Of a DNA stretch of 64,000 nt, positions 3,611 to 56,871 are shown in pieces. The DNA lies in contig JANNOZ010000010.1 in NCBI GenBank assembly GCA_031399525.1, positions 295,132 through 359,131 of the forward strand, given 5' to 3'. The number at the start of each line of letters is the position of its first letter. Within the stretch, counting starts at the first letter, position 1. The position numbers and the translations under genes were made by a program. Below the pieces are notes generated by a model, which saw only the letters and a program-made list of their open reading frames with translations, was not told the DNA's origin and made no database searches. This DNA comes from Actinomycetes bacterium (GTDB lineage: Bacteria; Actinomycetota; Acidimicrobiia; Acidimicrobiales; CADCSY01).

Positions 3611-4647
3611 CAGTTGAGAATCCCCGGAATCGACAAGTAGTCGGCGTAGAAGATCCCGACGCCTACGGCCGTGGCCATACCGGCCAGAATCCAGAAGCGG
3701 ATGATCACCGTCGTCTCGGGCCATCCACCGAGCTCGAAGTGGTGGTGGATGGGCGCCATGCGGAACACCCGGCGGCGGGCCAGGCGGAAGCTCGCCACCT
3801 GGATGATCACCGACATGGTCTCGACCACGTACACCGCCCCGAGGACGGGCAGCAAGAGATCGGTCTTGGTGACCAGCGCCAGCGCGGCCAGGCCCGCGCC
3901 GATGGCCAACGCTCCGGTGTCGCCCATGAAGATCTGGGCCGGAGCGGCGTTCCACCACAGGAACCCGAGGCAGGCGCCGGTCATCGCCGCGCCCATGACG
4001 GCCAGGTCGAGCGCCTCGGGGACCTGGTAGACGTCGACGTGTCGGAAGATCCAGAACGCGATGACCACGTAGGACGCGTAGGAGAAGACGGCCGAGCCGC
4101 CGGCCAGACCATCGAGCCCGTCGGTCAGGTTGACGGCGTTGGCGAAGCCGATGATCAACACCACCGACCACACCACGAACAAAACGGGTCCGAGATCGAC
4201 GTGGAGGGAGTCCCAGCGGGTGAAGGACAACGTGGTGCGGATGTTCGCCCACTCGACGGCGAGAACACCGAATGCGATGGCCACGGCCAGGAGCCCGGCC
4301 ATCTTGGTCTTCTTGTTCAGGCCGAGGTTCCGGGCGTTGCGAACCTTGATGACGTCGTCGAGGAAGCCCACGAACCCGGCCCCGGCCATGGCCAGCACGA
4401 CGAGGATCCCGCCCCGGGTGAAGACGATCCGGCCACTTACATGGGGAATGGCGTAGCCCAACAGCCCTCCACCCACGATGGCCAAGCCACCCATCGTGGG
4501 GGTCCCGGCCTTGACTCGGTGGCCGGCCGGGCCGTCCTCACGAATGGGCTGGCCGATCCCGTGGTCCCGCAGCCACCCGATGAGCACGGGCGTGCCGAAG
4601 ATGGCGACGACGAAGGCGACGGCAGCCGCGGCCAGGAGAGCGATCAC
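3610..4647 (-). CDS. mraY: phospho-N-acetylmuramoyl-pentapeptide transferase
   Basis: 345-aa polytopic membrane protein with TPTMGG, LDDVIKV, NAVNLTDGLDGLA and APIHHHFE motifs. Its start overlaps the murE stop by 4 nt. Confidence 0.95.
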   Translation of the reverse strand: MIALLAAAAVAFVVAIFGTPVLIGWLRDHGIGQPIREDGPAGHRVKAGTPTMGGLAIVGGGLLGYAIPHVSGRIVFTRGGILVVLAMAGAGFVGFLDDVIKVRNARNLGLNKKTKMAGLLAVAIAFGVLAVEWANIRTTLSFTRWDSLHVDLGPVLFVVWSVVLIIGFANAVNLTDGLDGLAGGSAVFSYASYVVIAFWIFRHVDVYQVPEALDLAVMGAAMTGACLGFLWWNAAPAQIFMGDTGALAIGAGLAALALVTKTDLLLPVLGAVYVVETMSVIIQVASFRLARRRVFRMAPIHHHFELGGWPETTVIIRFWILAGMATAVGVGIFYADYLSIPGILN

Positions 4648-16471: not shown

Positions 16472-18808
16472 ATGAGCGCCCGGAGCCGCGATCTGCGCCA
16501 GACCATGGCGGTCGCCGATCACCCTCGTCCGCCTGGCCAGCTGGCTCGCGTGCTGACCGAACTGGCCCTGGGCGGTGTCACGGTGGCCGCAGTGTTCGGC
16601 CTGATCCGCATCTTCGAAGACGCATCGTTCCTGCCTGCATTGGTGGCCACCGCGATCATCGCCCACGTGGTCGCTGCAGTCGTCCGGCGCGACGGGCGGC
16701 CGGTGATGATTGCCGTAGGAGCCCTCGGGCTTCTCCTCGTGCTCCTACTGACCTGGCTCAAGTGGCCCGAGTCGTCCTGGTACGGCCTGCCGACGTTGGC
16801 CACCTGGCAGGCCGCGGCCGACGAGCTGTCCCGAGCCTGGTCGGTCTTCCGCGACGCGAGTGCGCCGGCGCCGGTCGACGCCGGCTTCGTGCTGATCGGG
16901 GTGCTCACGGTGGCCTTGGTCGCGGTCACTGCCGATACAGCGGCGTTCCGGGCTGGGGCCGCCGTCGAAGCGGCGATACCAGCCGCCAGCATCTTCTTGT
17001 TCGGCGCCGCCCTCGGCGCCGGCCAGCACCGACTGGTCACCACCGCGGTGTTCCTGATCGCCGTCATGGCCTATTGGCTGGCCCAGAGGGGATTGGCCCA
17101 GTCGGTGACCCCGGGCCAGATGGCCACCGATCCAATGGGTGCGGGCACCAGCTTGGCCCGCCGAGGGGCCGGCATCATCGGCCTCGGCGTGGTCGCTGCC
17201 CTCGTAGTTGGCCCCATACTCCCGGGAGCCGACGCTCGGGCCGTCATCCCGTGGCGGGCTTCGGACCGACCGGGTTCGGACACCCGGGTCACGGTGAGCC
17301 CCCTCGTCGACATCCGCACCCGACTCGTCGACCAGGGCGACACCGAGGTCTTCAGCGTGGCGGCCAGCGACCCGAGCTACTGGCGGCTCACCTCGCTCGA
17401 CCAATTCGACGGGAGGATCTGGTCGTCCAACCGCCGCTACGAGGCAGCCGACGATGCTCTCAGCGGACCGGCGCCGGGCCGCAGTGTGGTCATCGAACAG
17501 GACGTCGAGATCGCGGCGCTGTCATCGGTTTGGCTCCCGGCGGCCTACCGCCCGGTGCAGATCGACGGCATCGATGCCGGCTACGACGCGGATTCGGGCA
17601 GCCTCATCGCCTCCGGCGCCGAACCGGTGCCCGAGGGCACCCGCTACGAGCTGCGTTCGGTGCAGCCGACGATCACCCAGGACATCCTGTCGGAGGCCGC
17701 GGCGACGGCCCCGGCCTCCATCGCCACGACCTACACCGCCCTCCCCGAGGGGTTCAGCACCGCGATCCAGACGCTCGCGGGAGAGATCGTGGCTGGCGCC
17801 ACTACCCAATACGAAAAGGCCCGACGGCTCCAGGACTGGTTCCAGTCGGGTCAGTTCACCTACGACCTCACCGTCATGTCCGGCCACAGCGCCAACGATC
17901 TCGAGCGGTTCTTGTTCGAGACCAAGACCGGCTACTGCGAGCAGTTCGCCGGCGCGTACGCGGCCCTGGCTCGCTCGGCGGGGCTCCCCGCCCGAGTTGC
18001 CGTCGGCTTCACCCCCGGCGAGCTCGGCGACGACGACCGCTACCACGTCTTCGGGTACAACGCCCACGCCTGGCCCGAGGTCTACTTCGACCAGATCGGG
18101 TGGGTTGCCTTCGAGCCCACGCCGGGTCGAGGCGCACCCCGGGCCAACAGCTACACCGGGCTCTCCCCTCAGCAAGCGACCGCGCCCGAGCTGTCCACCT
18201 CGACCACATCACAGAGCTCACCCACCACCGTCGGCGGCGGTGAGACGGCCACCACCCTCCCCGACTTCGGCAGCGACCTGAGCGCCACCGGGGCGGCCAC
18301 CTCGACCGAGCCCAGGTCGTGGACGGGACGGTTCCGCGCCGCGGCGGTCGTGCTGGTCGCCGCAGCCGCGCTCTGGCCACTCGGCCTCCTCGGCCTACGC
18401 GGCGCGCTCAGGCGGCGAAAGCGAGCCCGCGCCGTCGACGCCAGCCGCCGGGTGGTCGTGGCCTGGGACGACGCCGTGGCTGCCATCGACCTGGTCGGTC
18501 TGCACAGCCACCCGTGGGAGACGCCAGCGGAGCTGGCTCGGCGTGCCGCCCGGGCCCCGGGAGTCGAGGCCCGGGTCATCAACGGGTTGGCCGGTATGGT
18601 CACCTATGCCCGCTACGCGCCGGAGGTGGTCGACGACACCACCGCGGAACAGGCCGAGGACGCGGCCCGGACCATTGCCGACGGCGTGCGGGCCACTTTC
18701 GACCGATCTCAGCGGATCCGCTCGTGGTACGACCCTCGCCCTCTGTGGCCCACGCCCCGGACCCGGATCGACATCCGCGAGCAGGTAGGGACTCCCAGCG
18801 ACGACTGA
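16472..18808 (+). CDS. transglutaminase-domain membrane protein
   Basis: Start moved to ATG 16472, 11 nt after the DUF58 stop. Multi-TM N-terminal half. Transglutaminase core GYCEQFAGAYAALARSAGLPARVAVGF...H...D. Confidence 0.88.
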   Translation: MSARSRDLRQTMAVADHPRPPGQLARVLTELALGGVTVAAVFGLIRIFEDASFLPALVATAIIAHVVAAVVRRDGRPVMIAVGALGLLLVLLLTWLKWPESSWYGLPTLATWQAAADELSRAWSVFRDASAPAPVDAGFVLIGVLTVALVAVTADTAAFRAGAAVEAAIPAASIFLFGAALGAGQHRLVTTAVFLIAVMAYWLAQRGLAQSVTPGQMATDPMGAGTSLARRGAGIIGLGVVAALVVGPILPGADARAVIPWRASDRPGSDTRVTVSPLVDIRTRLVDQGDTEVFSVAASDPSYWRLTSLDQFDGRIWSSNRRYEAADDALSGPAPGRSVVIEQDVEIAALSSVWLPAAYRPVQIDGIDAGYDADSGSLIASGAEPVPEGTRYELRSVQPTITQDILSEAAATAPASIATTYTALPEGFSTAIQTLAGEIVAGATTQYEKARRLQDWFQSGQFTYDLTVMSGHSANDLERFLFETKTGYCEQFAGAYAALARSAGLPARVAVGFTPGELGDDDRYHVFGYNAHAWPEVYFDQIGWVAFEPTPGRGAPRANSYTGLSPQQATAPELSTSTTSQSSPTTVGGGETATTLPDFGSDLSATGAATSTEPRSWTGRFRAAAVVLVAAAALWPLGLLGLRGALRRRKRARAVDASRRVVVAWDDAVAAIDLVGLHSHPWETPAELARRAARAPGVEARVINGLAGMVTYARYAPEVVDDTTAEQAEDAARTIADGVRATFDRSQRIRSWYDPRPLWPTPRTRIDIREQVGTPSDD

Positions 18809-44736: not shown

Positions 44737-45159
44737 ATGCCTGATCCAGTGCACGTCGACCTCATGCAGCGGTTCCTCGATGCCACCTCGACCAACCAGC
44801 TCGATGCGTTCGACGAGCTGATGACCGACGACTACGAGGCCGAGGGCCGCCCGGGCCGGGGACCCGAGTCGCAAAAGGCTCACTTTGGCGCCGAGGCTGA
44901 CGGGCTCAGCGACAAGCGGGCCGAATTGGTGTGGCTCATCAGCGAGGACGACGCCTTCGCCGCCCACTACCGCCTCACCGGTCGCCACACCGGCACGTTC
45001 ATGGGTGTGCCCGCGTCGGGCGCCGAGGTCTCACTCGGATCGTTCGGCTTCTTCTGGGTCCGCGACGGCAAGCTTTGTCGCCACGCCGGCACCTCCAACC
45101 TCCTGCCCGCCCTGGTCGCCATGGGCGTGACGCCTCCGGGCTTCCCTGCCCAACGGTGA
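44737..45159 (+). CDS. SnoaL-like (NTF2-fold) ester cyclase family protein
   Basis: 140 aa. C-terminal HTGTFMGVPASG...FFWVRDGK pattern typical of ester cyclases. Confidence 0.7.
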   Translation: MPDPVHVDLMQRFLDATSTNQLDAFDELMTDDYEAEGRPGRGPESQKAHFGAEADGLSDKRAELVWLISEDDAFAAHYRLTGRHTGTFMGVPASGAEVSLGSFGFFWVRDGKLCRHAGTSNLLPALVAMGVTPPGFPAQR

Positions 45160-46289
45160 CGCCGACGCTCGACGCCACCACCGCCCGGCGCCTCCGCCTG
45201 ACCAGCCTGCTGCTCGCCGACAAGCCCGGCGATCCCGGCCGCCCTACGGGGCCGGTCGATGTCGCCGGCGTGGTCGAGTGGTTCGGCGCCATGCAGGCCC
45301 AAGACCTGGGCAGCGGCCTCTGGTCACTCGGCACCCGACTCCCCCACCTCGACAAGGCAGGCGTCGAAGCCGCCCTCGAACGCCGCGAAGCGCTGCGCAC
45401 CTGGCCCATGCGGGGCACCGTTCACCTCGTACCACCCCGCGACGCTCGCTGGATGCTGGACCTGATGGGCGCCAGACCTCTGGCTGGAGCAGCCAAGCGT
45501 CGGGCCTTCCTGGGCCTGCCCGACGACACCGCCGAGCGGGCCGTCGACGTGCTCGGGACGACGCTGGCCGGAGGTAAACGTTTGACCCGGGCCGAGTGCC
45601 TGGCCGCCTTGGCCGACGCCGGTATCGGCGGCAACGAGAATTGGGGCTACCACCTTCTCTGGTACGCCAGCCAGCGGGGCGTGACCTGCATCGCCCCCAA
45701 CGTCGGCAAGGAGCAGACCTTCGTCCTGCTCGACGACTGGGTTCCGAACCCCAACCAGCCCAGTCGCGACGAGGCCTTGGCGACCATCGCCACCCGCTAC
45801 GTGCGCAGTCACGGGCCCGCCACCCGACAGGACTTCGCCGGCTGGACTGGGTTCGGCGCGGCCGAAGCCAGGGCGGCGCTTGCCCTGGCCACCGACGCAG
45901 TCGGCGTGGCGACGCTCGACGGACAAGAGGTGCTGGTGGCCCCCGAGTTGCTCGACCTCCTGCCCTCGACCGACGACCTCGCCGACACCGACGTCTGGGC
46001 CCTGGCCGGATTCGACGAGTTCCTCCTCGGCTACAAGGACCGCTCGCTGGTATTGGGCGAGGGCCACCTCAAGGCGGTCATCCCGGGAAGCAACGGCGTG
46101 TTCCGACCCACGATCGTGCGTGGCGGCCAGGTCGTGGCCACCTGGACCCGCACGACGACCAAGACCAAAGTCACCGTCAGCGTCGCCCCGCTCGTGACGC
46201 TGAAGGCCGCCGACCGTCGCCGGGTTGAGTCAGCGTTGGCGCCCTACGCCCGCTTCCTCGGACTCGACCTCGTGGTGCGCTGGCCCTGA
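45156..46289 (+). CDS. YcaQ/AlkZ-family winged-helix protein (DUF1006; interstrand-crosslink DNA glycosylase family)
   Basis: Trimmed to GTG 45156 (GTGA overlap). Motifs AMQAQD, TWPMRGTVHLV and FDEFLLGY. Confidence 0.75.
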   Translation: MTPTLDATTARRLRLTSLLLADKPGDPGRPTGPVDVAGVVEWFGAMQAQDLGSGLWSLGTRLPHLDKAGVEAALERREALRTWPMRGTVHLVPPRDARWMLDLMGARPLAGAAKRRAFLGLPDDTAERAVDVLGTTLAGGKRLTRAECLAALADAGIGGNENWGYHLLWYASQRGVTCIAPNVGKEQTFVLLDDWVPNPNQPSRDEALATIATRYVRSHGPATRQDFAGWTGFGAAEARAALALATDAVGVATLDGQEVLVAPELLDLLPSTDDLADTDVWALAGFDEFLLGYKDRSLVLGEGHLKAVIPGSNGVFRPTIVRGGQVVATWTRTTTKTKVTVSVAPLVTLKAADRRRVESALAPYARFLGLDLVVRWP

Positions 46290-46407
46290 CCGACGCGGTC
46301 CCATCGGCCCGTCGCGTGACCTTTGGCCCTGTCCTCTCCGGCCGGACACGGGCAGGGTCGAGCGGTCCTTGGCCATGCCCGGTCGGGCAACCCGAAGGAG
46401 ACCCAGG

Positions 46408-46935
46408 ATGAAGACAGTGATCGTCTACGAATCGATGTATGGCAACACCCGCGCCCTGGCTGAGCACATCGCCGCCGCGGTACGCCGCACCGGCGAAGTC
46501 GACGTCGCCGCCGTGGCCGTAGCCGACGCCACGCCCGAGCTGATCACCGGCGCCGATCTGGTGATCGTCGGGGGCCCGACCCACGTGCATGGCATGTCCT
46601 GGTCGACCACCCGCCGCAGCGCGGTCGAGGAAGCCGATACGCCCGACTCCCTCGACCCCGACGCCGAGGGACCAGGGCTGCGCGACTGGTTCCATCAGGT
46701 CGACCGGGTCCACGACACTCCGGCCGCCGCCTTCGACACCCGCATCGACGCCAACCCGGCCTTCACCGGGCGGGCTTCGGTGGGGATCAGCCGCCGGCTC
46801 CGCCACCACGGCTTCCGGGAGATCGCTGAGCCCGAGAGCTTCCTGGTCGACAAGGAGAGCCACCTTCTTGCGGGCGAGGAGGACCGGGCCGAACAATGGG
46901 CCAGGAGCCTGCTCGACCGGCTCCGGCAAGCCTGA
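46408..46935 (+). CDS. flavodoxin-domain protein
   Basis: ATG 46408 preceded by GAAGGAG 7 nt upstream. MKTVIVYESMYGNTRALAE. Confidence 0.8.
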   Translation: MKTVIVYESMYGNTRALAEHIAAAVRRTGEVDVAAVAVADATPELITGADLVIVGGPTHVHGMSWSTTRRSAVEEADTPDSLDPDAEGPGLRDWFHQVDRVHDTPAAAFDTRIDANPAFTGRASVGISRRLRHHGFREIAEPESFLVDKESHLLAGEEDRAEQWARSLLDRLRQA

Positions 46936-46936
46936 C

Positions 46937-47392
46937 GTGGCGGCCCAGAAAGCACGGCTCCCTCCCCGATGGTTCATCCGGCTGGCCTGGTTCGCTCACC
47001 GCCGCCTCTACCGCTGGACCGGTGGACGCCTCGGCCTCTGGCGACCCAAGCCCGACGGATGGGGGGCCATGCACCTCGTCACCCGAGGCCGGCGGACAGG
47101 CCAGGACCGCGCCGTGATCATCGGCTACTTCGAGGACGGCCCCAACCTCGTCACCCTGGCCATGAACGGATGGGGTGACGCCGAACCAGCCTGGTGGCTC
47201 AATCTCCAAGACCATCCGGACGTGACCGTCGACCTGGTCGACGGATCTCGCCAGGTCACCGGCCGAGCTGCACAAGGCGACGAGCGCGATCGTCTGTGGG
47301 CCCGATGGTGCGAGATCGACAAGAACCTCGATGCCTATGCCTCCCGGCGCTCGATGGAGACCGCAGTGGTCGTCTTCGAACCGCGCCCCTAG
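46937..47392 (+). CDS. deazaflavin(F420)-dependent nitroreductase family (DUF385/Ddn-like)
   Basis: GTG 46937, 1 nt after the flavodoxin stop. Motifs LVTRGRRTGQDR and GDAEPAWWLNLQDHP. Confidence 0.8.
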   Translation: MAAQKARLPPRWFIRLAWFAHRRLYRWTGGRLGLWRPKPDGWGAMHLVTRGRRTGQDRAVIIGYFEDGPNLVTLAMNGWGDAEPAWWLNLQDHPDVTVDLVDGSRQVTGRAAQGDERDRLWARWCEIDKNLDAYASRRSMETAVVVFEPRP

Positions 47393-47407
47393 CCCTCCTC
47401 GTTCTTC

Positions 47408-47442
47408 GGCGGATCCACCACCGAGGAGGTGGCGGATCCGCC
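47408..47442 (+). terminator. stem-loop after the Ddn-like gene
   Basis: GGCGGATCCACCACC-GAGGA-GGTGGCGGATCCGCC. 15-bp stem with one mismatch, starting 16 nt after the stop codon. Confidence 0.55.
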
Positions 47443-47486
47443 AGAGAACGCCCTCCGGCCCGTTGTTGTCACACCCTCGTGCGACG

Positions 47487-48434
47487 ATGGGGTCCATGGC
47501 GGAGACCAGCTCGCTCGCGGCGGTGGCTACCCAGGTGGCGGCGCTGTTGGCCGGCGCGGACGTGTCGCTGTCCGATCCCGAGGGCTCCGACCTGGTCTTC
47601 GACGGTGACGCCGTCACCCGCCCGCTCGTTCGGGTCGATCCACCGGTCGAATGTTGGGCGGTCGACGGGGGCCAAGCCCTGCTGGCCGACGCCCGCTGCC
47701 TGCAGATCGCGGTCACCCGAGCAGCGACGGTCCGGTTCCAGCACGGAGCCTGCGCCATAGAAGACCCGGGCCAGATCGACGCCCACCTGCTCGGCCTCGA
47801 CCCCGGCATCGACCTCAACTTCCTCCGCGACCAGGCTGAGTGGGTCGCCGTGGCCCGAGCCGTCGACTCAGCCGAACCCGGTGGTCTGGTCCTGGTCGAC
47901 GGCGACTTGGTCCCCGACTGGCGAGCGCCGTCGGGCCTGGTCCCCGAGCTCATCGACCGGGCCGTCGATCGCCACGTCACGCTGGTCGCCATCACCAAGC
48001 ACTCATCGCTGGCCCGGGGCCGAGCGCCACTGGTCGGCATGCTCGAACGCGACGCCGAAGCCACGCTCGGGCCCCGAACCACCTGGTGGGCGCCGATCGC
48101 CCATCTGGAGGTTGGCGCCATCGCCGTGGTGATCGCCCGGCTCGACCCCGACGCCCGCTTCGCCTTCCGCATCGACCTGGCCGGACACCTGGCCACCGAC
48201 CCGGCCGCCGTGCTGGGCCAGCTCAGCGCGCTCAGCGACGACGCCGCCTTCCCCGGATATCCCTACCCGCTGTCGGTGGCCGACCGGCTGGCGGCCTGTC
48301 CGAGCTGGCTGCGCCATGAGCTACGAAGTCAGCTCGACGAGTTGCTCGACCTTGCCGGGGTCGACGAGGACGCCCGCGAGCGGGCCTTCGCCGACCGTCA
48401 CCGCTTCCTCGAACGCGGCGGGGCCTTCGCATGA
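47487..48434 (+). CDS. nurA: NurA-domain 5'-3' nuclease
   Basis: ATG 47487. Motifs WAVDGG, LVLVDGDL, ITKHSS and GYPYPLSVADRLA, matching the NurA catalytic Asp / K / YPY..A pattern. Confidence 0.8.
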   Translation: MGSMAETSSLAAVATQVAALLAGADVSLSDPEGSDLVFDGDAVTRPLVRVDPPVECWAVDGGQALLADARCLQIAVTRAATVRFQHGACAIEDPGQIDAHLLGLDPGIDLNFLRDQAEWVAVARAVDSAEPGGLVLVDGDLVPDWRAPSGLVPELIDRAVDRHVTLVAITKHSSLARGRAPLVGMLERDAEATLGPRTTWWAPIAHLEVGAIAVVIARLDPDARFAFRIDLAGHLATDPAAVLGQLSALSDDAAFPGYPYPLSVADRLAACPSWLRHELRSQLDELLDLAGVDEDARERAFADRHRFLERGGAFA

Positions 48435-48501
48435 ACGAGTTCATGCCCAGAGGCAACCGCATGAACGAGGTCATGCCAGGGGGAACAGCATGAGCGAGCT
48501 C
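48429..48501 (+). repeat. 2.5 tandem copies (period 30/29 nt) of GCATGA(A/G)CGAG(T/G/C)TC spanning the nurA stop, a 20-codon ORF and the herA start
   Basis: Copy 1 is 48429-48447 (GCATGAACGAGTTCATGCC). Copy 2 is 48459-48477 (GCATGAACGAGGTCATGCC). A partial copy 3 is 48488-48501 (GCATGAGCGAGCTC). The mini-ORF 48431..48493 encodes MNEFMPRGNRMNEVMPGGTA. Confidence 0.8.
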
Positions 48502-50085
48502 TCCCCTACCCGGGGCCGGCTGTTCGGGAAAAACGTGCTCGAGGCCACGTTCCGGGCTGCTCCCGACGAAGACCTGTTCCTGGGCGAGTTGTTGGTGGGC
48601 ATCGACGGCGCCACCGGCCGGCGCTACCTGTTCCGGGTGGTCGACGTCTCCTACGGCTCCGAGCACCGAGAGCCGGGCTGGGCCGAGCGAGTCGCCGGCA
48701 CCCTGCTGGCCGACGACACCCGAGACGAGGCCGGCGCCCATCGCCTCTACGAGTCCGATCAACGCACCTATCGAGTCGCCTCCTGTCGATGCCTGGGCTA
48801 CCTGACCCCACCCGACGACGGCGGCACCCAGACCTTCCGTAAGCCCAAGAGCCTGCCCACCCAGTTCTCCCGAGTGGTCTCGCCCGAGCCGGCCGACTTC
48901 GACTTCCTGCGCAGCCGCATGGGCGACCTGCCCATCGGCTGGTTGCGCAGCGGCGAGACGGTGGTCGACTTCGAGGTGGGCATCCCGGGCGAGGCGCTGG
49001 CCAGCCACGTGGGCATCTTCGCCACCACCGGGATGGGCAAGTCCAACCTGATGATGGTGCTGGCCGGCGGCGCCATGCGGGCCAACGGCCGCTACGGCCT
49101 CCTGTTGGTCGACCCCCACGGCGAGTACCGCACGGCCCTGCCCCGCCACCCTTGGGCCGCCGACCGGCTGCGCACCTATGCCGCCCGGCGTCTGCCCAAC
49201 ACGTCGGCCCTGCGCCTCTCGTTGGGTGAGCTGGCGGTCGACGACCTGCGTACCGCCTATGACTGGACCCGCCCCCAGGAGGAGGCGCTGTTCGAGCTCG
49301 AGCGCTTCTACAACGGCCCGTCCCGCCCTGGGCTGACCTGGCTCCTCGACTTCGCCCAACTCGACGACCTCCCCGGCTTCCGAGAGGTCGACCTGGGTGG
49401 TCGCATCGCCCTCAACACCTTGCAGGTGGTCCATCGACGGGCCCGACGGATCGTCGAGCTCCCCTGCGTCGCCACCGACGCCCACGTCTCGGTCGGGGGC
49501 GCCATCGTGGCCGACCTCGAAGCCGGACGAGTGGTGCTGGTCGACGTCAGTGGGCTGGGTTCGACCGAAGAGCTGCTGGTGGCCAGCTTCCTCACCCGCA
49601 CGGTGCTCGACCGGTGGTCCGGCGCCTACCTCGACGACCCCGACCTGCACGAACGTCTGCCGGTGGTCTCGATCGTGCTCGAAGAAGCCCAACGGGTGCT
49701 GTCCTCGGCCGCCGACCGGGACGCCAACGTCTTTCCCCGCCTGGCCCGCGAGGGGCGCAAGTTCAAGGTAGGGCTGACCGCCATCACCCAGCAGCCCAAG
49801 CTCCTCGACGACGAGTTGCTCAGTCAGTTCAACACCTTCTTCGTGCTCGGTTTGGCCGACGAGAAGGACCGCAACATCCTGCGCAGCTCGGCCAAGCAAG
49901 ACCTCTCAGCCCTCGGGCCGGAGATCCAGACCCTCATGCCCGGCGAATGCCTGGTGGCCTCGTTGGCTGCGCCCTTCGCCATTCCGGCCCGGGTGCACCT
50001 CTTCGATGCCCTGTGCCGGGCCACCCCGCCCGCCCCGCAACCCCGACCGACGATGGCTCCGGCCACCTCGTCGATCTTCGACTGA
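48490..50085 (+). CDS. herA: HerA-type (FtsK/HerA superfamily, DUF87) ATPase/helicase
   Basis: ATG 48490 (MSELSPTRGRLFG). Walker A ATTGMGKSN, Walker B VSIVLEEAQ, and RKFKVGLTAITQQP. Confidence 0.85.
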   Translation: MSELSPTRGRLFGKNVLEATFRAAPDEDLFLGELLVGIDGATGRRYLFRVVDVSYGSEHREPGWAERVAGTLLADDTRDEAGAHRLYESDQRTYRVASCRCLGYLTPPDDGGTQTFRKPKSLPTQFSRVVSPEPADFDFLRSRMGDLPIGWLRSGETVVDFEVGIPGEALASHVGIFATTGMGKSNLMMVLAGGAMRANGRYGLLLVDPHGEYRTALPRHPWAADRLRTYAARRLPNTSALRLSLGELAVDDLRTAYDWTRPQEEALFELERFYNGPSRPGLTWLLDFAQLDDLPGFREVDLGGRIALNTLQVVHRRARRIVELPCVATDAHVSVGGAIVADLEAGRVVLVDVSGLGSTEELLVASFLTRTVLDRWSGAYLDDPDLHERLPVVSIVLEEAQRVLSSAADRDANVFPRLAREGRKFKVGLTAITQQPKLLDDELLSQFNTFFVLGLADEKDRNILRSSAKQDLSALGPEIQTLMPGECLVASLAAPFAIPARVHLFDALCRATPPAPQPRPTMAPATSSIFD

Positions 50086-50099
50086 GTCCGGCGCCGGCT

Positions 50100-51233
50100 A
50101 TGCGTATCGCAGCCCTCGGCGACGCCCATCTGGGACGCAGCTACCTGCCGGTGGCCGTGCCCGACTTGCCCGGGGTCAACCAACGTGAGCACGACTTCGA
50201 ACGCAGCTTCGAGGCCGCCATCGCCTTGGCCCTGGCCCAAGAGCCCGACGTGCTCATCTGGCTGGGCGACATCTTCGACCGGCCCAATCCCACCTACCGC
50301 AGCTTCCGGGTGGCCCAACGGGCGCTGCTCGAGATTCGCGAGCACGGGGTGCCAGTCGTGGTCATCAGCGGCAACCACGACACGCCCCGCCTCCCTGGCA
50401 CGGGCAGTCCGTATTCGCCGCTGGCCGATGCGTTCGGGGTCGACCACGGGGGCAACGTCCACTTCGCCACCCGGGCCACCTACGAGCGCGTCGACCTGGG
50501 CGACCTGGTCGTGCATGCCGTCCCCCAGATGCTCACGGTCGACGCCACCCTCGAGGCCCTCGACCAGGCCGATCAGCACCGCAGCCTCGACGCCACCAAC
50601 CTCCTGCTCACCCACCCCCGCCTCCCCCAGGTCGAGCCCCGCTACGCCGACATCAACGAGATCGAGGTCGATGCCGGCCGCCTACGGGCCGATCTGGTCC
50701 TGCTGGGCCACTACCACACCCACCAACGGGTCCAACCCGGCATGTGGTACGCCGGCTCGACCGACACGTTCACCTTCGCGGATGAGCCCGAGGCCCCCAA
50801 AGGCATCGTGGTGCTCGACACCACCACCGGCGAGTGCCACCACGTGCCCCTGACCGGCCAGCGCCCACTGCTGACCCTGCCCACCGTCAACGCCCTGGGC
50901 CTCTCCCACACCGAGCTGCGCGCCGCGGTCCTCGACCGTATGGTCGACCTACCCGAGGGGGGTGTGGCTCGCCTCTACCTCGACGGCGTCGATCCCGAGG
51001 CCTACCGCCTCCTCGACCTCGACGAGGTCCGGGAGGCCAGCTCGGCGTTGCTGCACCTCAAGGTCGAGCCCCAGTTCGTCGGGGTGGCCGTAGGCGTTGA
51101 GCTACCCGACCTCAACTCGATCGTCGCCGGCTGGGAACGCTTCGTCGACGGCCAAGACCTCACCGGCTTCGAGCGACCCCGCATCGTCGAGGCCGGGCGG
51201 GGCTACCTCGACCGCGCCGTCCACGACGCCTGA
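50100..51233 (+). CDS. mre11: Mre11/SbcD-family DNA repair exonuclease
   Basis: ATG 50100. Phosphoesterase motifs GDAHLG, GDIFDR, GNHD and GHYH. Confidence 0.88.
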   Translation: MRIAALGDAHLGRSYLPVAVPDLPGVNQREHDFERSFEAAIALALAQEPDVLIWLGDIFDRPNPTYRSFRVAQRALLEIREHGVPVVVISGNHDTPRLPGTGSPYSPLADAFGVDHGGNVHFATRATYERVDLGDLVVHAVPQMLTVDATLEALDQADQHRSLDATNLLLTHPRLPQVEPRYADINEIEVDAGRLRADLVLLGHYHTHQRVQPGMWYAGSTDTFTFADEPEAPKGIVVLDTTTGECHHVPLTGQRPLLTLPTVNALGLSHTELRAAVLDRMVDLPEGGVARLYLDGVDPEAYRLLDLDEVREASSALLHLKVEPQFVGVAVGVELPDLNSIVAGWERFVDGQDLTGFERPRIVEAGRGYLDRAVHDA

Positions 51234-51248
51234 TCGCCGGTCCGGCCC

Positions 51249-53525
51249 GTGCAGCTCACCCGCATCTACCTGCGCAACTATCGGGTCTTCGAGGACGAGC
51301 TGACCCTCGAGCTTCCCGGCGGGCTGGTCGGTGTCTACGGGCCCAATGGGGCCGGCAAGTCCTACCTCATCGAGTCGATCCGCTGGACGCTCTTCGGACA
51401 GTCCCGCACGGCCAAAGAGCAGGTCCGCACGTCGGGGGTCAACGGCGACTGCGTCACCGAGATCGAGTTCGAGCACGAGGGCCATCTCTACGAGGTCCGC
51501 CGAACCCTGTCGGGCATCAATGCCACGGTGCGAGCCGAGGCCAGCGCCGACCGCCTCCAGGTGGCCGAAGGCGCCACCGACGTCAGCCGCTACGTCCATT
51601 CGGTGTTGGGCATGGACGACACCGCCTTTCGAGCATCGGTCTTTGCCGAACAGAGCCAGCTGGCCGCGTTCACCAGCCAGACGGCGGCCAAGCGCCGGGA
51701 GCTGGTGCTGCGCCTGCTCGGCATCACCCCGCTCGACGGCGCCCGCGCCCAGGCCAACAAGGACGCCACCCAAGCCGGCAGTGACCACAACCGTCTGCGC
51801 GACCTGCTGCCCGACCTGGCTGCGCTCGACGTCGAGATCGCCGAGCTCGCCGGAATCGTGGTCCACACCGAATCCGCTCGGACCTCCGCTGTCGCGGCGC
51901 GAGACGCGGCCGCGGCCACTCGATCCGACGCCGAAGCGGCCCTCGAGCTCCTCGATGCGCAGGCCCGCCGCCACGACACGCTGGTCGCCGACGGGCGGGC
52001 CGTGCGGGCCGAGCTCGACGCGGCCACCGAGACCGTGACTCGCCTGACCGCCGAACTGGCCACCCTCGACGACGCAACCATCCGGCTCGACTCGCTGCGA
52101 AGCGCGGCGGCCTCCCTGCCCGCCCTCGAAGCCGAGGTGGCACTGGCCCGGGCCGTGGCCGAGGCCGAGGCACGCCTCGAGGACACGCCAACGCCGGTCG
52201 AGCCGCCGGCCCTCGACGAACCACGGGTACTGGCCCGCCGAGCCGACGTCGAGCAGCTCCAAGCTGCGGTTGCCACCCTCGACGGCCAGCGTCAGGCCGC
52301 CAACGCTGAGCTGGCCCGAGCTCGGGCCGCGGTCGAGCGAGCCGCGGAGCTGTCCGACGACGCCGACTGCCCGGTGTGCGGCCAAGCCCTGGGCGAGTCC
52401 TTCGCCCAGGTCCAGCAGCATCGGGCCGCCGAGGTCACCGACGCCGAGGCACGCCTGGCCACCCTCGACGCCAACCGATCGACGGCCGGCGCCGACCTGG
52501 TCGCGGCCGAGACCGAACTGGCCGAGGCCGAGGGGGTTCTCGCCGCTGGACGAAAGGTGTGGGCCGAGTTCGAGGCCGCCCGAGCCCGGCGGCTCGACGC
52601 CGAGGCCACGCTGACCCGGGCCAATGCTGCCCTCGGCCGGCACCTGGCTCAGGGCGAACTCGACCAGCTACTCGCCGCGCTGGCCGAAGGTCGAGCGGCT
52701 ACAGCCGAGGCCAGCCGCTTGGAAGGTCGCCTCGAGCGAAGGGCCGGAGCCGAGGCCGAGTTGGCCCACGCCCGCCAGCTGATCGATCTGGCCAGCCAAC
52801 GCCGGGCGGCCCTGTTGGCCGAGGTCGAGGCTTTGGCGTTCGACCCAAAGGCCCACGCCGCGGCCGGTGCCGCCCGTGAGGCGGCTCGGGCGGCGGCCGA
52901 CGACGCCGCCAAGGCCGCCCACCGCTGCGAGTTGACCCACACCGAGGCTGTCACCCGACTCGAGGGTGCCCGGGCCCGCCAGGCGGTGGCCCACGAGCAG
53001 CACCAGGCCATTGCCGAGGTGGCCGAACGAGCTCGGCACCTGTCCCGCACCGCCGAGTTGCTCGGCGCGTTCCGGACGTCGGTGGTCGAGACCGTCGGCC
53101 CTCGCTTGGCCGCCCAAGCGGCCGAGTTGTTCGCCGAGCTGACCGACCACGAGTACGACCGGCTCGACGTCGACGCCGAGCACTTCGGCCTCCAGATCCA
53201 CGACGGTGGTGTGGCCTACGACCTCGGTCGCTTCTCGGGCTCCGAGAAGGACCTGGCCAATCTGGCCCTGCGAGTGGCCATATCCGAGCAGGTCCGGTTC
53301 CAGTCGGGCGGGGCCGTCGGGCTGCTCGTGCTCGACGAGGTCTTCGGCCCGCTCGACGACGAACGCCGAGCCCGGGCCCTGCTGGCCCTCGAGCGTCTCC
53401 GCAGCCGGTTTCGCCAGGTACTGGTCGTGACCCACGCCACCGATGTCAAAGAGCAGCTCCCAGCGGCCATCGAGGTGGTGAAACTTCCCGGCCGAAGGGC
53501 TACTGCCCACCTGGTCGGCACCTGA
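51249..53525 (+). CDS. rad50: Rad50/SbcC-family SMC-like ATPase
   Basis: 758 aa. Walker A GPNGAGKS. CPVC zinc hook at mid-protein (DNA 52368-52379). Signature SGSEKD, Walker B LLVLDE, H-loop VVTHA. Long Ala/Glu coiled coils. Confidence 0.9.
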   Translation: MQLTRIYLRNYRVFEDELTLELPGGLVGVYGPNGAGKSYLIESIRWTLFGQSRTAKEQVRTSGVNGDCVTEIEFEHEGHLYEVRRTLSGINATVRAEASADRLQVAEGATDVSRYVHSVLGMDDTAFRASVFAEQSQLAAFTSQTAAKRRELVLRLLGITPLDGARAQANKDATQAGSDHNRLRDLLPDLAALDVEIAELAGIVVHTESARTSAVAARDAAAATRSDAEAALELLDAQARRHDTLVADGRAVRAELDAATETVTRLTAELATLDDATIRLDSLRSAAASLPALEAEVALARAVAEAEARLEDTPTPVEPPALDEPRVLARRADVEQLQAAVATLDGQRQAANAELARARAAVERAAELSDDADCPVCGQALGESFAQVQQHRAAEVTDAEARLATLDANRSTAGADLVAAETELAEAEGVLAAGRKVWAEFEAARARRLDAEATLTRANAALGRHLAQGELDQLLAALAEGRAATAEASRLEGRLERRAGAEAELAHARQLIDLASQRRAALLAEVEALAFDPKAHAAAGAAREAARAAADDAAKAAHRCELTHTEAVTRLEGARARQAVAHEQHQAIAEVAERARHLSRTAELLGAFRTSVVETVGPRLAAQAAELFAELTDHEYDRLDVDAEHFGLQIHDGGVAYDLGRFSGSEKDLANLALRVAISEQVRFQSGGAVGLLVLDEVFGPLDDERRARALLALERLRSRFRQVLVVTHATDVKEQLPAAIEVVKLPGRRATAHLVGT

Positions 53526-53538
53526 CAAGCTGACGGCC

Positions 53539-54438
53539 ATGCACGAGTTCTGGCAAGGCGAGCGGGTCGTGGTCCTCGACGGCAGCATGAACCTGCGGGA
53601 TGTGGGCGGCTACCCGACCGCCGACGGCGGCGTGGTCCGAACCCTGTCGTTGTTCCGCTCGGCCACGTTGAGCGATCTCTCCGTCGACAGCTTGGGTGTG
53701 TTGGCCAACGACCTGGGCGTGCGCACGGTGGTCGACCTGCGCTCCGAGCAAGAGCTCTCCCATGGCCTGCCCGAGTTCGACGCCGTGGGCATCCGCCACG
53801 TCAACGTTCCCATCGGCGACGTCGGCCAGGGCCGCGAGGCACCCCCAGAGGGCGAGGCGCCACCAGAGCCCACCGAAGAGGAGAAGGCTCGGCGCCAGGC
53901 TTTCCTCGACGGCACCCACGACTGGGCCGAGACCTACGTCGAGTTCTTCGACAAGCACGGCACCGACCTGGCCGCCGCCGTGCGAGCCCTGGCCGAGCCC
54001 GGGGCGTTGCCGGCCATCGTCCATTGCACCGCCGGCCGCGACCGCACCGGGGTGACCATCGCGTTGGTGCTGGCTGCGGTCGGGGCGTCGCCCGCCGACA
54101 TCGCCGCGGACTACGCCCTCACCGGCGACCTGCTGCAATTGCACGGCGAGCGTTTCCTCAAGAACCTGACCGAGCGGGGACCTCGGATGGATCGCGGGCG
54201 GCCACCGTCCGACGACGGCACCCCGGCAGCACCGCCAACTCCCCCGCCCGGGATGGAACCCCCCGACCCCCAGAAGTTGCTGGCCGCCTTCACTGCCACC
54301 CCTCCGGCGTTCATGTCTCGCTTCCTCGACACCCTGGTCGAGCGCCATGGCAGCCTCGACGCCGCCCTCGACTCCGTCGGCATCACCGCCGACACCCGGG
54401 CTGCCCTACGCGTCGAGCTCGTCGTCCCCGCGCCCTGA
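53539..54438 (+). CDS. protein-tyrosine phosphatase family protein (Y_phosphatase3-like)
   Basis: 299 aa. NLRDVGG and the P-loop HCTAGRDRTG (CX5R). Starts 13 nt after the rad50 stop. Confidence 0.85.
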   Translation: MHEFWQGERVVVLDGSMNLRDVGGYPTADGGVVRTLSLFRSATLSDLSVDSLGVLANDLGVRTVVDLRSEQELSHGLPEFDAVGIRHVNVPIGDVGQGREAPPEGEAPPEPTEEEKARRQAFLDGTHDWAETYVEFFDKHGTDLAAAVRALAEPGALPAIVHCTAGRDRTGVTIALVLAAVGASPADIAADYALTGDLLQLHGERFLKNLTERGPRMDRGRPPSDDGTPAAPPTPPPGMEPPDPQKLLAAFTATPPAFMSRFLDTLVERHGSLDAALDSVGITADTRAALRVELVVPAP

Positions 54439-54456: not shown

Positions 54457-54826
<370 letters not shown>

Positions 54827-54834
54827 CCACCTCG

Positions 54835-54913: not shown

Positions 54914-55372
54914 ATGGCCCTCCGGAACACAGGCGCTCGCCGCCAGCTCGACGCTCGCCTCGAAACCCTTCGCCCCCTCGCTGGGGAACCGCGACCTCCC
55001 CGCGGCTGGATCAGAGCGATACGCGACGCACTGGGCATGTCGACAACCGAGCTTGCGAAGCGAATGCGTGTCGCTCAGACGAGGGTCTCCAGCATCGAGC
55101 GGGCGGAGGCTGACGGCACGATCAAGCTCGACACCTTGCGGAGGGCCGCTGACGCCCTCGACTGTGACCTCGTCTATTTCCTCGTACCTCGAACGAGCCT
55201 CGACAGCGCCGTCCAGACCCAGGCTCGCCGCAAGGCAGCAGCGTCTCTCCGGCACGTGGCCCACAACATGCGGCTCGAGGATCAAGCCGTCGACGTCAAG
55301 GACCAGATCGATGACCTAGCGGCCGAGCTCGTTGACCGACGCGGCCTCTGGACCGACGCGCCCACGACGTGA
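54914..55372 (+). CDS. 'mobile mystery protein A' (XRE-type HTH protein)
   Basis: 152 aa. RGWIRAIRDALGMSTTELAKRMRVAQTRVSSIERAE...LDTLRRAADALDCDLVYFLVP matches my recollection of the TIGR02612 family pattern. Confidence 0.75.
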   Translation: MALRNTGARRQLDARLETLRPLAGEPRPPRGWIRAIRDALGMSTTELAKRMRVAQTRVSSIERAEADGTIKLDTLRRAADALDCDLVYFLVPRTSLDSAVQTQARRKAAASLRHVAHNMRLEDQAVDVKDQIDDLAAELVDRRGLWTDAPTT

Positions 55373-55959
55373 GCGACCCGCTCGTTCCCATCGGTGATGG
55401 TCACACACCACTCGATGACGACGACCAAGAAGGCCTCCTGCTCACCTACATCACCACCCGCGGTGAACTGAACGACGCTGAGCAGCGGAACATCACATCG
55501 GCCGTCACCCGGCGCCGGCAGCCGACGCCGGCTCAACTGCTCGACGACCGGTACCTCCGGAACCTCCACAAGGCGATGTTCAGCGAGGTGTGGTCATGGG
55601 CGGGGACCTATCGGCAGCGCGAGACCACCATCGGGGTCGACCCGCAGATGATCAGCGTGCGCGTACGGGATCTCACCAACGACGTGCTCGCTTGGATCGA
55701 GCACGAGACCTACCCGCCGGACGAGATCGCTGTCCGCTTTCACCACCAGCTCGTCTTCATCCATCCGTACCCGAATGGCAACGGGCGACACACTCGCCTT
55801 GCCGCGGACTACCTGATCCAGGCCCTTGGTGGCTCGCGGTTCACGTGGGGAGCCAACCTCGGCGTCACCACCGACGAGTTGCGAGCGGCGTACCTCTCGG
55901 CCCTCAAGGCCGCCGATCGCGGGTCGTTCCGCCAGCTACTTGCGTTCAGCCGTTCGTGA
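55369..55959 (+). CDS. 'mobile mystery protein B' (Fic/DOC-family protein)
   Basis: 196 aa. Fic motif HPYPNGNGRHTR (HxFx[D/E/N]GNGR). 4-nt overlap with the upstream HTH gene. Confidence 0.8.
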   Translation: MSDPLVPIGDGHTPLDDDDQEGLLLTYITTRGELNDAEQRNITSAVTRRRQPTPAQLLDDRYLRNLHKAMFSEVWSWAGTYRQRETTIGVDPQMISVRVRDLTNDVLAWIEHETYPPDEIAVRFHHQLVFIHPYPNGNGRHTRLAADYLIQALGGSRFTWGANLGVTTDELRAAYLSALKAADRGSFRQLLAFSRS

Positions 55960-56104
55960 CCGTCGGGACCGTGCGACTGCATCCCTGCCCTCCGCCAAGG
56001 TCCCGGCTGCGCTCTGAACCACGAGCTGCACCGTCGGCCGGCCGGTCACCGTCCCCCACTCGGCCCCACTCAGCGGCGGTGTAGCTGAGCTCCGTCCGGT
56101 CCGG

Positions 56105-56497
56105 CTACGGCTCGATCCGATCGACCGTCGTCACCCGGTCGATCGATCGGTCGAACGACGCGATCACCCCGACACCGGTGCTCTCGGCGCATGCCACGAG
56201 GTAGGCCTCGGCGAAGTCGATGTGGACGGTCTCGTAGACCTCGATGGCCCGCAGGAGTAGTGCCGAATCGACGCACACCATCGAAGGGAACGCGATCAGC
56301 GACCGCATTGCCTCCGCCACCGTCGGGCGCGGTGCCCGATAGAACGACTCCAACACGTAGACCGTCTCGGACACGACGAGGTCCGTGAGCAACAGCTCAG
56401 TCGCCTCACGAAGGTAGGCCGTGGCCCGAACGGCAAGCTCCGGCGGATCGCCGGTGAGGTGGCGGATCAGAACGTTGGTGTCGACGAAGGCGCTCAC
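56105..56497 (-). CDS. vapC: PIN-domain toxin VapC
   Basis: Track ORF 56105..56848 trimmed to GTG 56497 (GTGA overlap with the vapB stop). VSAFVDTNVLIRHL with the acidic residues of a PIN domain. 130 aa. Confidence 0.85.
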   Translation of the reverse strand: MSAFVDTNVLIRHLTGDPPELAVRATAYLREATELLLTDLVVSETVYVLESFYRAPRPTVAEAMRSLIAFPSMVCVDSALLLRAIEVYETVHIDFAEAYLVACAESTGVGVIASFDRSIDRVTTVDRIEP

Positions 56498-56742
56498 CTT
56501 GGTGGCGCCGCCCGGGACTTCCTCGTTCGGCGGATCACCTCGTCCCACGCCACGTTCCTCCGGTCCGCCGGCACCGGCACCGACCCGGCCAGGTCCAAGA
56601 AATTCGATGTCCTGGCCAGCACCGCACGTGTTCCCTCGACTCGGAACACAACCTGGTCGCCCTCGGCGATGCCCAGAGCGTCGCGAACGGCCTTGGGCAC
56701 GGTGATCTGACCCTTCGATGTGACTCGCGCAGCAGCATCCAC
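56494..56742 (-). CDS. vapB: AbrB/MazE/SpoVT-family antitoxin VapB
   Basis: 82 aa. VTSKGQITVPKAVRDALGIAEGDQVVF swapped-hairpin motif. GTG start preceded by AAGGAG. Confidence 0.85.
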   Translation of the reverse strand: MDAAARVTSKGQITVPKAVRDALGIAEGDQVVFRVEGTRAVLARTSNFLDLAGSVPVPADRRNVAWDEVIRRTRKSRAAPPR

Positions 56743-56748
56743 GATTAC

Positions 56749-56774
56749 TCCTTACTTTCCATCCTACGTAAGGA
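56749..56774. promoter_or_regulatory. inverted repeat overlapping the vapB ribosome-binding region
   Basis: TCCTTAC (56749-55) pairs with GTAAGGA (56768-74). 12-nt spacer, in an AT-richer leader. Confidence 0.4.
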
Positions 56775-56871
56775 TAGGGTTGGGACACACTCCCGGTGCA
56801 GGGACGCAGCCCGGTGTGCTCGACTATCGGGCCGGAGTCAGTGCACATCAGTCACCAGGGGAGGCCCGACC

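Follow-up and report, generated by a model that had tools for sequence, protein, structure and literature searches.

The locus described here raises the question of what an archaeal-looking set of DNA end-processing genes does in the chromosome of a high-G+C bacterium, and whether it serves there as one repair machine, as two unrelated pairs of proteins, as a defence module or as a recent import. In archaea such as Sulfolobus, Pyrococcus and Thermococcus the operon order is herA-mre11-rad50-nurA, and the linkage implies a joint role of the four products in end resection. To our knowledge, nearly all work on HerA-NurA and Mre11-Rad50 as a system concerns hyperthermophilic archaea and Deinococcus-Thermus. 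The stretch of DNA analysed (the window) comprises 64,000 nt of contig JANNOZ010000010.1 (GCA_031399525.1, contig positions 295,132-359,131) of a member of the Acidimicrobiia, an abundant, little-cultured class of soil and aquatic bacteria; all coordinates below are window positions unless a locus is named. Five open reading frames (ORFs), all on the plus strand, lie between a strong hairpin on the 5′ side and rnpB on the 3′ side (Table 1), and the gaps in the order nurA, herA, mre11, rad50 and phosphatase gene are 55, 14, 15 and 13 nt. A sequence-only reading of this DNA had described the same ORFs, gaps, hairpin and rnpB, all of which were recovered, and each catalytic motif that it quoted was found at a sensible position in its protein. 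The first four genes very probably constitute a chromosomal, vertically inherited module that processes the ends of DNA double-strand breaks, with HerA-NurA and Mre11-Rad50 of archaeal type.

The assignments of the four proteins were borne out by profile, profile-profile and structure-prediction tests: HerA, Mre11 and Rad50 exceed their Pfam cutoffs, and the first gene product is identified as NurA by the Pfam matches of its relatives, by hhalign and by AlphaFold2 (AF2) modelling followed by Foldseek searches. Pfam NurA was matched by 19 of 23 close family members at E <= 0.01 (best 1.4e-6), and alignment of the family with the Pfam-positive NurA of another Actinomycetota metagenome-assembled genome (MAG; locus L084) gave an hhalign probability of 99.1 and an E-value of 3.9e-19, spanning the AVDGG, EW, VDGD, GYPYPL and RH positions. 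The AF2 model (predicted local distance difference test, pLDDT, 84.5; predicted template modelling score 0.82) has the RNase-H-like NurA fold; its top Foldseek match was Sulfolobus solfataricus NurA 2ygk (E 4.7e-11, template modelling score 0.58), followed by the NurA proteins of T. kodakarensis and P. furiosus and then by T. maritima 1zup. The motifs AVDGG, LVLVDGDL, ITKHSS and GYPYPLSVADRLA are located at 58, 134, 169 and 257. Residues D57, E115, D135/D137 and H302 are invariant in the family alignment (A1) and, after the published archaeal NurA structures, would be the metal-binding catalytic residues. D57, E115 and H302 are the same in L084 (AVDGG/AIDGG, EW/EW and RH/fH), whereas VDGD is matched by mDGs at D135 and G136 only, D137 being S in L084. 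More than 1,200 relatives of this NurA, mostly metagenomic, are present in the protein collection, and a few of them are named NurA by NCBI.

HerA carries Walker A (TTGMGKSN) at 179 and Walker B (IVLEEAQ) at 395, which are kept in 59-60 of 60 relatives, Walker A in all 60. It scored 68.6 bits on Pfam DUF87 (cutoff 23.2, E 1.1e-18), and the closest solved sequence is S. solfataricus HerA 4d2i (2.9e-18). The AF2 model (pLDDT 88.9) shows the full-length HerA fold, an N-terminal barrel together with a RecA-like core, and 4d2i was again the top Foldseek match (E 1.9e-27 over 520 aligned columns). Deinococcus radiodurans HerA reached structural rank 35 only and was not detected by sequence even at E <= 10, and D. 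radiodurans NurA was absent from the top 50 Foldseek matches of the window NurA model. The window lineage therefore represents a different HerA/NurA subfamily, which it shares with Zixibacteria and Thermoplasmatota.

Mre11 scored 49.2 bits on Pfam Metallophos (cutoff 21.5, E 1.1e-12), with GDAHLG at 7, GDIFDR at 56, GNHD at 91 and GHYH at 203, and all four motifs are kept in 50 of 50 relatives. Rad50 exceeds the cutoffs of Pfam SMC_N, AAA_23 and SbcC_Walker_B. The motifs of its split ATP-binding cassette (ABC) head (Walker A, Q-loop, signature, Walker B and H-loop) are found at 31, 132, 663, 692 and 726, with Walker A as GPNGAGKS, the signature as SGSEKD and Walker B as LLVLDE, and the CPVC hook is located at 374 of 758 residues; all 35 relatives compared have a CPxC hook. 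Among solved sequences both proteins are closest to those of M. jannaschii, Mre11 with 2e-11 (versus 2e-5 for SbcD) and Rad50 with 7e-19 (versus 7e-12 for Escherichia coli SbcC). With E. coli SbcCD the pair shares the nuclease-ATPase domain set of the Mre11/Rad50 family; it differs in its shorter Rad50 (SbcC has 1048 aa) and in being linked to nurA-herA. The four proteins are thus closer to the archaeal than to the characterised bacterial versions, namely E. coli SbcCD and Deinococcus HerA. For each protein 35-70 relatives were compared, and the catalytic motifs are kept in all of them or nearly so, the lowest count being that of KHS in NurA (57 of 70).

Table 1. Features of the end-processing locus and its surroundings (window positions)
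Feature	Position	Strand	Evidence
G+C-rich hairpin, candidate terminator of the upstream gene	47401-47449	+	folding and sequence
Promoter, conserved	47467-47488	+	motif precedes nurA in 44 of 78 loci
nurA, predicted RNase-H-like 5′-3′ nuclease, 312 aa	47496-48434	+	profile-profile alignment, AF2/Foldseek
herA, predicted FtsK/HerA-type hexameric double-stranded DNA translocase, 531 aa	48490-50085	+	Pfam DUF87, AF2/Foldseek
mre11/sbcD, predicted Mn-dependent phosphoesterase nuclease, 377 aa	50100-51233	+	Pfam Metallophos
rad50/sbcC, SMC-like ABC ATPase with central CPVC zinc hook, 758 aa	51249-53525	+	Pfam SMC_N, AAA_23, SbcC_Walker_B
PtpB-like CX5R phosphatase (Y_phosphatase3)	53539-54438	+	Pfam, 7.4e-53
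rnpB, RNase P RNA class A	54462-54823	+	227 bits
AlkZ-like DNA glycosylase	44931-46289	+	Pfam, 3.8e-66; synteny with sister genome

A pattern scan with one genome per species confirmed the window-type NurA in at least 212 species-level genomes. For the analysis of synteny, loci were fetched for the best 80 of these 212 relatives, all of them Acidimicrobiia/Actinomycetota MAGs, and are designated here by L numbers. Nearly every locus that reaches far enough carries nurA-herA-mre11-rad50 on one strand; two long loci (L042 and L070) had no mre11 or rad50 within reach. The adjacency of nurA and herA is kept in all loci but a few, and the exceptions are contigs ending within ~160 nt of nurA. Outside this set, distant HerA relatives (42-47% identity) were found in Zixibacteria, other Actinomycetota and archaea of the Thermoplasmata/Methanomassiliicoccales. 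The order is nurA-herA-mre11-rad50 in the Actinomycetota MAG L084 and nurA-herA-x-mre11-rad50 in Zixibacteria (L083). In Methanomassiliicoccales (L082, L085 and L087) it is herA-x-mre11-rad50, with no nurA upstream, and in the Thermoplasmata contig L086 a PD-(D/E)XK nuclease gene comes after nurA-herA. In Methanomassiliicoccales, which among archaea are the nearest relatives, the conserved gene between herA and mre11 encodes a Na+/H+ exchanger (9591-11372 in L082, 2850-4619 in L085). L085 also has a 428-aa ORF that overlaps the rad50 end and might encode a divergent NurA.

The sequence-only reading had taken a four-gene operon beginning with nurA to be unusual in bacteria. This does not hold, as the order recurs in the 80 loci, in L084, in Zixibacteria and in Oceanithermus profundus, for which a nurA-hepA-sbcD-sbcC (nurA-herA-sbcD-sbcC) cluster has been noted (PMC5448004). 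Its recurrence in Acidimicrobiia, L084 and Zixibacteria makes nurA-first the usual bacterial arrangement. D. radiodurans and Thermus thermophilus likewise have the bacterial pair of nurA followed by herA (PMC9960219), and in O. profundus sbcD-sbcC follow it as in the window. The survey of relatives upheld the four-gene block; the linkage to the phosphatase gene was not found beyond the closest relative. With the archaeal operon the window shares the four components, including their catalytic motifs and the zinc hook of Rad50, and its nearest solved relatives come from archaea with such operons or from Methanocaldococcus. It differs in having nurA first instead of last, in a host that is a high-G+C bacterium of a lineage so far recovered only as environmental MAGs, in an identity of only ~10-20% to the solved archaeal proteins, and in a leaderless promoter of actinobacterial type. 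The four-gene system is therefore already known, its gene order is not exceptional and its annotation is ordinary; what is added here is the class-wide synteny with rnpB and Ku/LigD, together with the promoter, which is new.

This promoter was recognised by alignment of the regions upstream of nurA in 78 loci. A core motif TGTC(A/G)CAC-N8-nAnnnT, followed as a rule by N6-7-ATG, is present in 44 of them (shuffle mean 0.1); 39 of these 44 have 6-7 nt between the -10 element and the start codon. In the window, TGTCACAC (47467-47474) is separated by 8 nt from the -10-like hexamer GACGAT (47483-47488), and ATG 47496 follows 7 nt on. The nurA start had previously been placed at 47487, which is 9 nt too far upstream: the promoter is conserved across relatives and ATG 47487 overlaps the -10 hexamer, so the start was moved to ATG 47496, giving a protein of the length listed in Table 1 that equals public record P0001. 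The fixed short distance between the -10 element and ATG implies a leaderless nurA mRNA, and nurA-herA-mre11-rad50 are probably transcribed from this one leaderless promoter, TGTCACAC-N8-GACGAT-N7-ATG. A scan with a sigma-70 consensus over 46.5-55.5 kb gave no promoter-like sites, and in the same region terminator-like sites were not commoner than in shuffled sequences.

The motif resembles RecA-NDp, the RecA-independent DNA damage promoter of mycobacteria with the consensus tTGTCRgtg-8nt-TannnT (PMC5656591), which is a target of PafBC (PMC6789036). Common to both are the TGTCR core, the 8-nt spacer, a -10 element whose second base is A and sixth base T, and a location in front of genes for DNA repair and nucleases, DUF222 genes among them. 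From this likeness damage-inducible expression through a PafBC-like activator appears likely. No LexA box (GAAC-N4-GTTC) and no exact RecA-NDp core (TGTCRGTG) was found upstream of nurA in any of the 78 loci. Many relatives differ from RecA-NDp by an additional palindrome, nACA-N4-TGTAA, before the core motif (29 loci versus a shuffle mean of 0), which is lacking in the window and its sister genome. The core motif also occurs elsewhere in the fetched loci: before mre11 (L023 and L031), before herA in L050, where an insertion parts herA from nurA, before a DUF222 gene (L033), and, leaderless and of the TGTCAC type as at nurA, before NERD genes that intervene in the cluster (L030, L039 and L041). 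It directly precedes an 83-aa Cys-rich ORF (CxxC...CxxC) without a Pfam match in L003 (900-1151, minus strand) and L068 (16-267, minus strand), which may be another member of a putative regulon.

A metagenome scan with the composite promoter motif yielded 120 matches, for the most part chance ones in low-G+C contigs (105). Of the 15 matches in high-G+C contigs, three were nurA promoters, four belonged to leadered or leaderless genes (coding for an IS1595 transposase, ARPP-1, a sigma-like protein and a possible RecB-like nuclease) and eight lacked a recognisable gene context; these are too few for the scan to define the regulon. A subclade with linked Ku genes (L013, L017, L029, L030, L032, L041 and L060) lacks the TGTCRCAC motif and carries instead a conserved sequence gggCAT(A/G)GCATgcttggcc-GTG ~30 nt upstream of nurA, which by its form would be another leaderless promoter, the -10 element being of TAGCAT type. 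In one MAG (L081, ~4560-4640) caggatcgccgggaga is repeated four times in tandem directly upstream of nurA.

Several observations weigh against the four genes being a joint end-processing module of archaeal type. At the protein level, the window NurA itself reaches only 16 bits on Pfam NurA (PF09376; cutoff 21), and a search of the NurA family profile against PDB sequences retrieved no solved NurA, the best match being TdpB at a non-significant E of 0.16. Scores on the NCBIfam models of the archaeal equivalogs (NF040937, NF041031, NF002244 and others) stay far below the cutoffs, with 77 versus 800 for HerA, 51 versus 500 for Mre11 and 135 versus 847 for Rad50; the three window proteins are consequently homologues and not members of these orthologue groups. 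The promoter has CAC where RecA-NDp has gtg after TGTCR, and its -10 element is nAnnnT. When nurA or herA is deleted in Deinococcus and Thermus, DNA-damage resistance is only modest or even improved (PMC9960219), and with such mild or paradoxical phenotypes the role of HerA-NurA in bacterial physiology is not yet established. Finally, genes on the opposite strand part herA from mre11 in a subclade; they are MarR (or NUDIX) and NERD-nuclease genes, or unrelated genes covering as much as 4 kb. Together with the copy of the promoter that mre11 has of its own in L023 and L031, this means that the four genes are not an obligate single operon; the arrangement reads as two conserved pairs that would usually form one operon. 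The intervening genes are located at 12638-13971 in L017, 12622-13951 in L030 and 13092-14616 in L048, and occur also in L039 and L041.

The splits and the separate mre11 promoter are what would be expected if NurA-HerA (acting, for example, in resection with RecJ or in DNA transfer, as proposed for Deinococcus and Thermus) and SbcCD (acting in the cleavage of hairpins and palindromes) were two independent, uncoupled pairs lying side by side, as is the PD-(D/E)XK nuclease gene that takes the place of mre11-rad50 after nurA-herA in L086. Such a chance neighbourhood is unlikely, as the two pairs remain neighbours, with order and strand unchanged, in nearly all far-reaching loci, apart from L042 and L070, and in two other bacterial lineages, as split pairs share the same promoter motif, and as Mre11 and Rad50 are closer to the archaeal partners of HerA-NurA than to E. 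coli SbcCD.

The surroundings of the cluster bear on its origin. Its G+C content of 0.70 matches that of the flanks, and positions 1-36000 are core chromosome including central metabolism, with a dcw cluster (MraZ, PBP transpeptidase, Mur ligases, an MraY-type transferase and FtsW), genes for phosphofructokinase and two-component regulators, and a MoxR-type AAA_3 ATPase accompanied by a transglutaminase-like TgpA protein. From ~38 kb through rnpB the window and the sister genome are collinear, and synteny breaks exactly after rnpB. An AlkZ-like glycosylase gene, shared with the sister genome, lies ~1.2 kb upstream of nurA in the window; flavodoxin-like and F420H2-quinone-reductase-like ORFs (46225-47392) are inserted between it and nurA in the window only. 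The hairpin (-41.9 kcal/mol, z = -5.05, with none of 200 shuffles equally stable) follows the stop codon of the F420H2-quinone-reductase-like gene (47392), ahead of the nurA promoter, and, despite the lack of a U-tract, is probably the terminator of that gene. In ~20 loci, for example L013, L017 (7974-9741), L027, L041, L042 and L048, Ku and LigD primase-polymerase genes lie directly upstream of nurA in divergent orientation, so that end-joining and resection genes share one locus in a large subclade. The NERD-nuclease genes within the cluster of some relatives likewise fit a repair neighbourhood.

In 20 related loci rnpB adjoins the cluster, following rad50 on the same strand in some and lying divergently ahead of nurA in the others, the two orientations being those that a simple in-place inversion would produce. 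The sequence-only reading had pointed to rnpB and to a hotspot of toxin-antitoxin genes and cassettes beside it; the adjacency to rnpB stands and is conserved in the lineage, and is for this reason no sign of a mobile island, while mobile-looking material was found only past rnpB. This bears on a recent horizontal acquisition from archaea, in which the cluster would be a genomic island beside rnpB. The nearest solved relatives of all four proteins are indeed archaeal, the HerA subfamily mixes Thermoplasmatota (42-45% identity) and bacteria (44-46%) in a star-like tree, and rnpB-adjacent integrase genes are present in ~9 related loci. With native G+C, at least 212 species-level genomes with the window-type NurA, a gene order and a native-type promoter conserved across the 80 fetched loci, and collinearity of the sister genome from ~38 kb through rnpB, a recent transfer is not supported and seems highly improbable; an ancient inter-domain transfer is likely. 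A neighbour-joining tree of HerA was also considered as a guide to the direction of transfer and was not used, being star-like and unsupported, with archaea and bacteria interleaved.

A second proposal to be weighed against the surroundings is an anti-phage or anti-plasmid defence module, in which HerA and an SMC-like ATPase would destroy invading linear DNA. Defence islands are variable between close relatives, whereas this cluster is kept in place across a bacterial class, beside rnpB, Ku/LigD and AlkZ and at native G+C, and the gene order shared with the sister genome continues unbroken through rnpB, to be lost only past it. PADLOC returned partial matches for HerA (HerA 1.4e-24, mad8 1.4e-16) and Rad50 (mad3 2.3e-27, LmuB 1e-18). 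NurA and Mre11 had no PADLOC match and the best HerA matches cover mainly the C-terminal ATPase region; the matches represent generic ATPase similarity. TdpA, Sir2-HerA and DUF4297-HerA are close structural neighbours of the window HerA, and Sir2-HerA/Nezha, DUF4297-HerA and TdpAB share its fold, yet the defence-type HerAs match the model less well than S. solfataricus HerA, and archaeal repair proteins rank ahead of every defence HerA among the solved relatives. Neither a Sir2, DUF4297, methyltransferase or other defence effector nor phosphorothioation genes lie beside the window genes, so that the pairing with effector or modification functions typical of Sir2-HerA, DUF4297-HerA, TdpAB and MADS is lacking; the neighbours are NurA, Mre11, Rad50, the phosphatase and rnpB in a core chromosome. 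Toxin-antitoxin-like genes do occur past rnpB, and a mode of double-stranded DNA destruction has been proposed for archaeal HerA-NurA (PMC3326311). On balance a defence function is very unlikely, and native G+C, core location, conserved rnpB, Ku/LigD and AlkZ neighbours and the absence of a nearby defence effector favour repair.

The phosphatase gene had been read as the fifth cistron of the repair system. Its product is a clear member of the widespread PtpB-like Y_phosphatase3 family (180 bits), with the motif HCTAGRDRT at 162, CX5R at 163 and a match of 3.4e-12 to the solved M. tuberculosis PtpB 1ywf. As a functional fifth subunit or regulator it might, for example, dephosphorylate HerA, Rad50 or a single-strand-binding protein (SSB). 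It lies on the same strand 13 nt past rad50, no terminator-like site is located between them, and the gene also follows rad50, after a gap of 57 nt, in the closest relative (GCA_031398745.1, 81% NurA identity). Among the 80 loci the linkage is confined to L001/L002; the gene is missing from the cluster in all 79 other fetched loci, ~35 of which have a complete rad50 and sequence past it. There, rad50 directly abuts rnpB (gap ~40-130 nt) or is followed by unrelated genes, such as that of an M24 peptidase in L046. The confinement to the window and its 81%-identical sister genome marks the phosphatase gene as a lineage-specific insertion between rad50 and rnpB, probably recent, local and not part of the machine, and a role as a fifth component can hardly be expected. 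From the layout, the gene is probably co-transcribed with rad50 in the window.

For the double-strand-break end-processing module favoured here, a course of events can be modelled on work on archaeal and Deinococcus HerA-NurA (PMC3326311, PMC9960219). An Mre11 dimer and a zinc-hook-linked Rad50 dimer would recognise the ends of a break and trim them in an ATP-dependent manner. A HerA hexamer would then thread the duplex through its pore into a docked NurA dimer, which would part the strands and degrade the 5′ strand, leaving 3′ single-stranded DNA for RecA. The downstream recombinase in a bacterial host would be RecA and not RadA. More tentatively, and with considerable doubt, archaeal-type HerA-NurA/Mre11-Rad50 may be a main double-strand-break resection pathway of the Acidimicrobiia, belonging to an actinobacterial, LexA-independent damage regulon through a variant, leaderless RecA-NDp promoter, with the palindrome as a second control in many species and Ku/LigD completing a hub of break repair. 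The cluster represents a third, widespread lineage of HerA-NurA/Mre11-Rad50, in mesophilic high-G+C bacteria, with the four genes together, Ku/LigD beside them and a damage-type promoter. It offers a cleaner bacterial setting for the questions of whether HerA-NurA and Mre11-Rad50 act as one resection machine and how this relates to RecBCD/AdnAB, and the promoter motif provides a handle for defining the DNA-damage regulon of the Acidimicrobiia from sequence.

Past rnpB the window becomes variable. Two copies of a 14-nt direct repeat, TCACCGTCCCCCAC, at 54817-54830 (over the rnpB 3′ end) and at 56046-56059 bracket the segment 54831-56045, which has a G+C content of 0.65 and carries an HTH_3 (54914-55372) and Fic/Doc (55369-55959) gene pair; it looks like a small cassette inserted at the rnpB end. 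Apart from the 14-nt repeat, neither an integrase homologue nor a longer rnpB-derived att duplication was found in the window. Integrase-like genes with weak Phage_integrase matches are located on the far side of rnpB in ~9 Acidimicrobiia loci (among them L002 at 17514-18332, L016, L051, L056, L059, L064, L072 and L079), which suggests repeated integration at rnpB within this class. In the same variable region of the window, a 247-aa ORF on the minus strand (56105-56848) has a PIN domain in its C-terminal half only (121-239) and is probably a mis-joined pair of an antitoxin and a PIN toxin.

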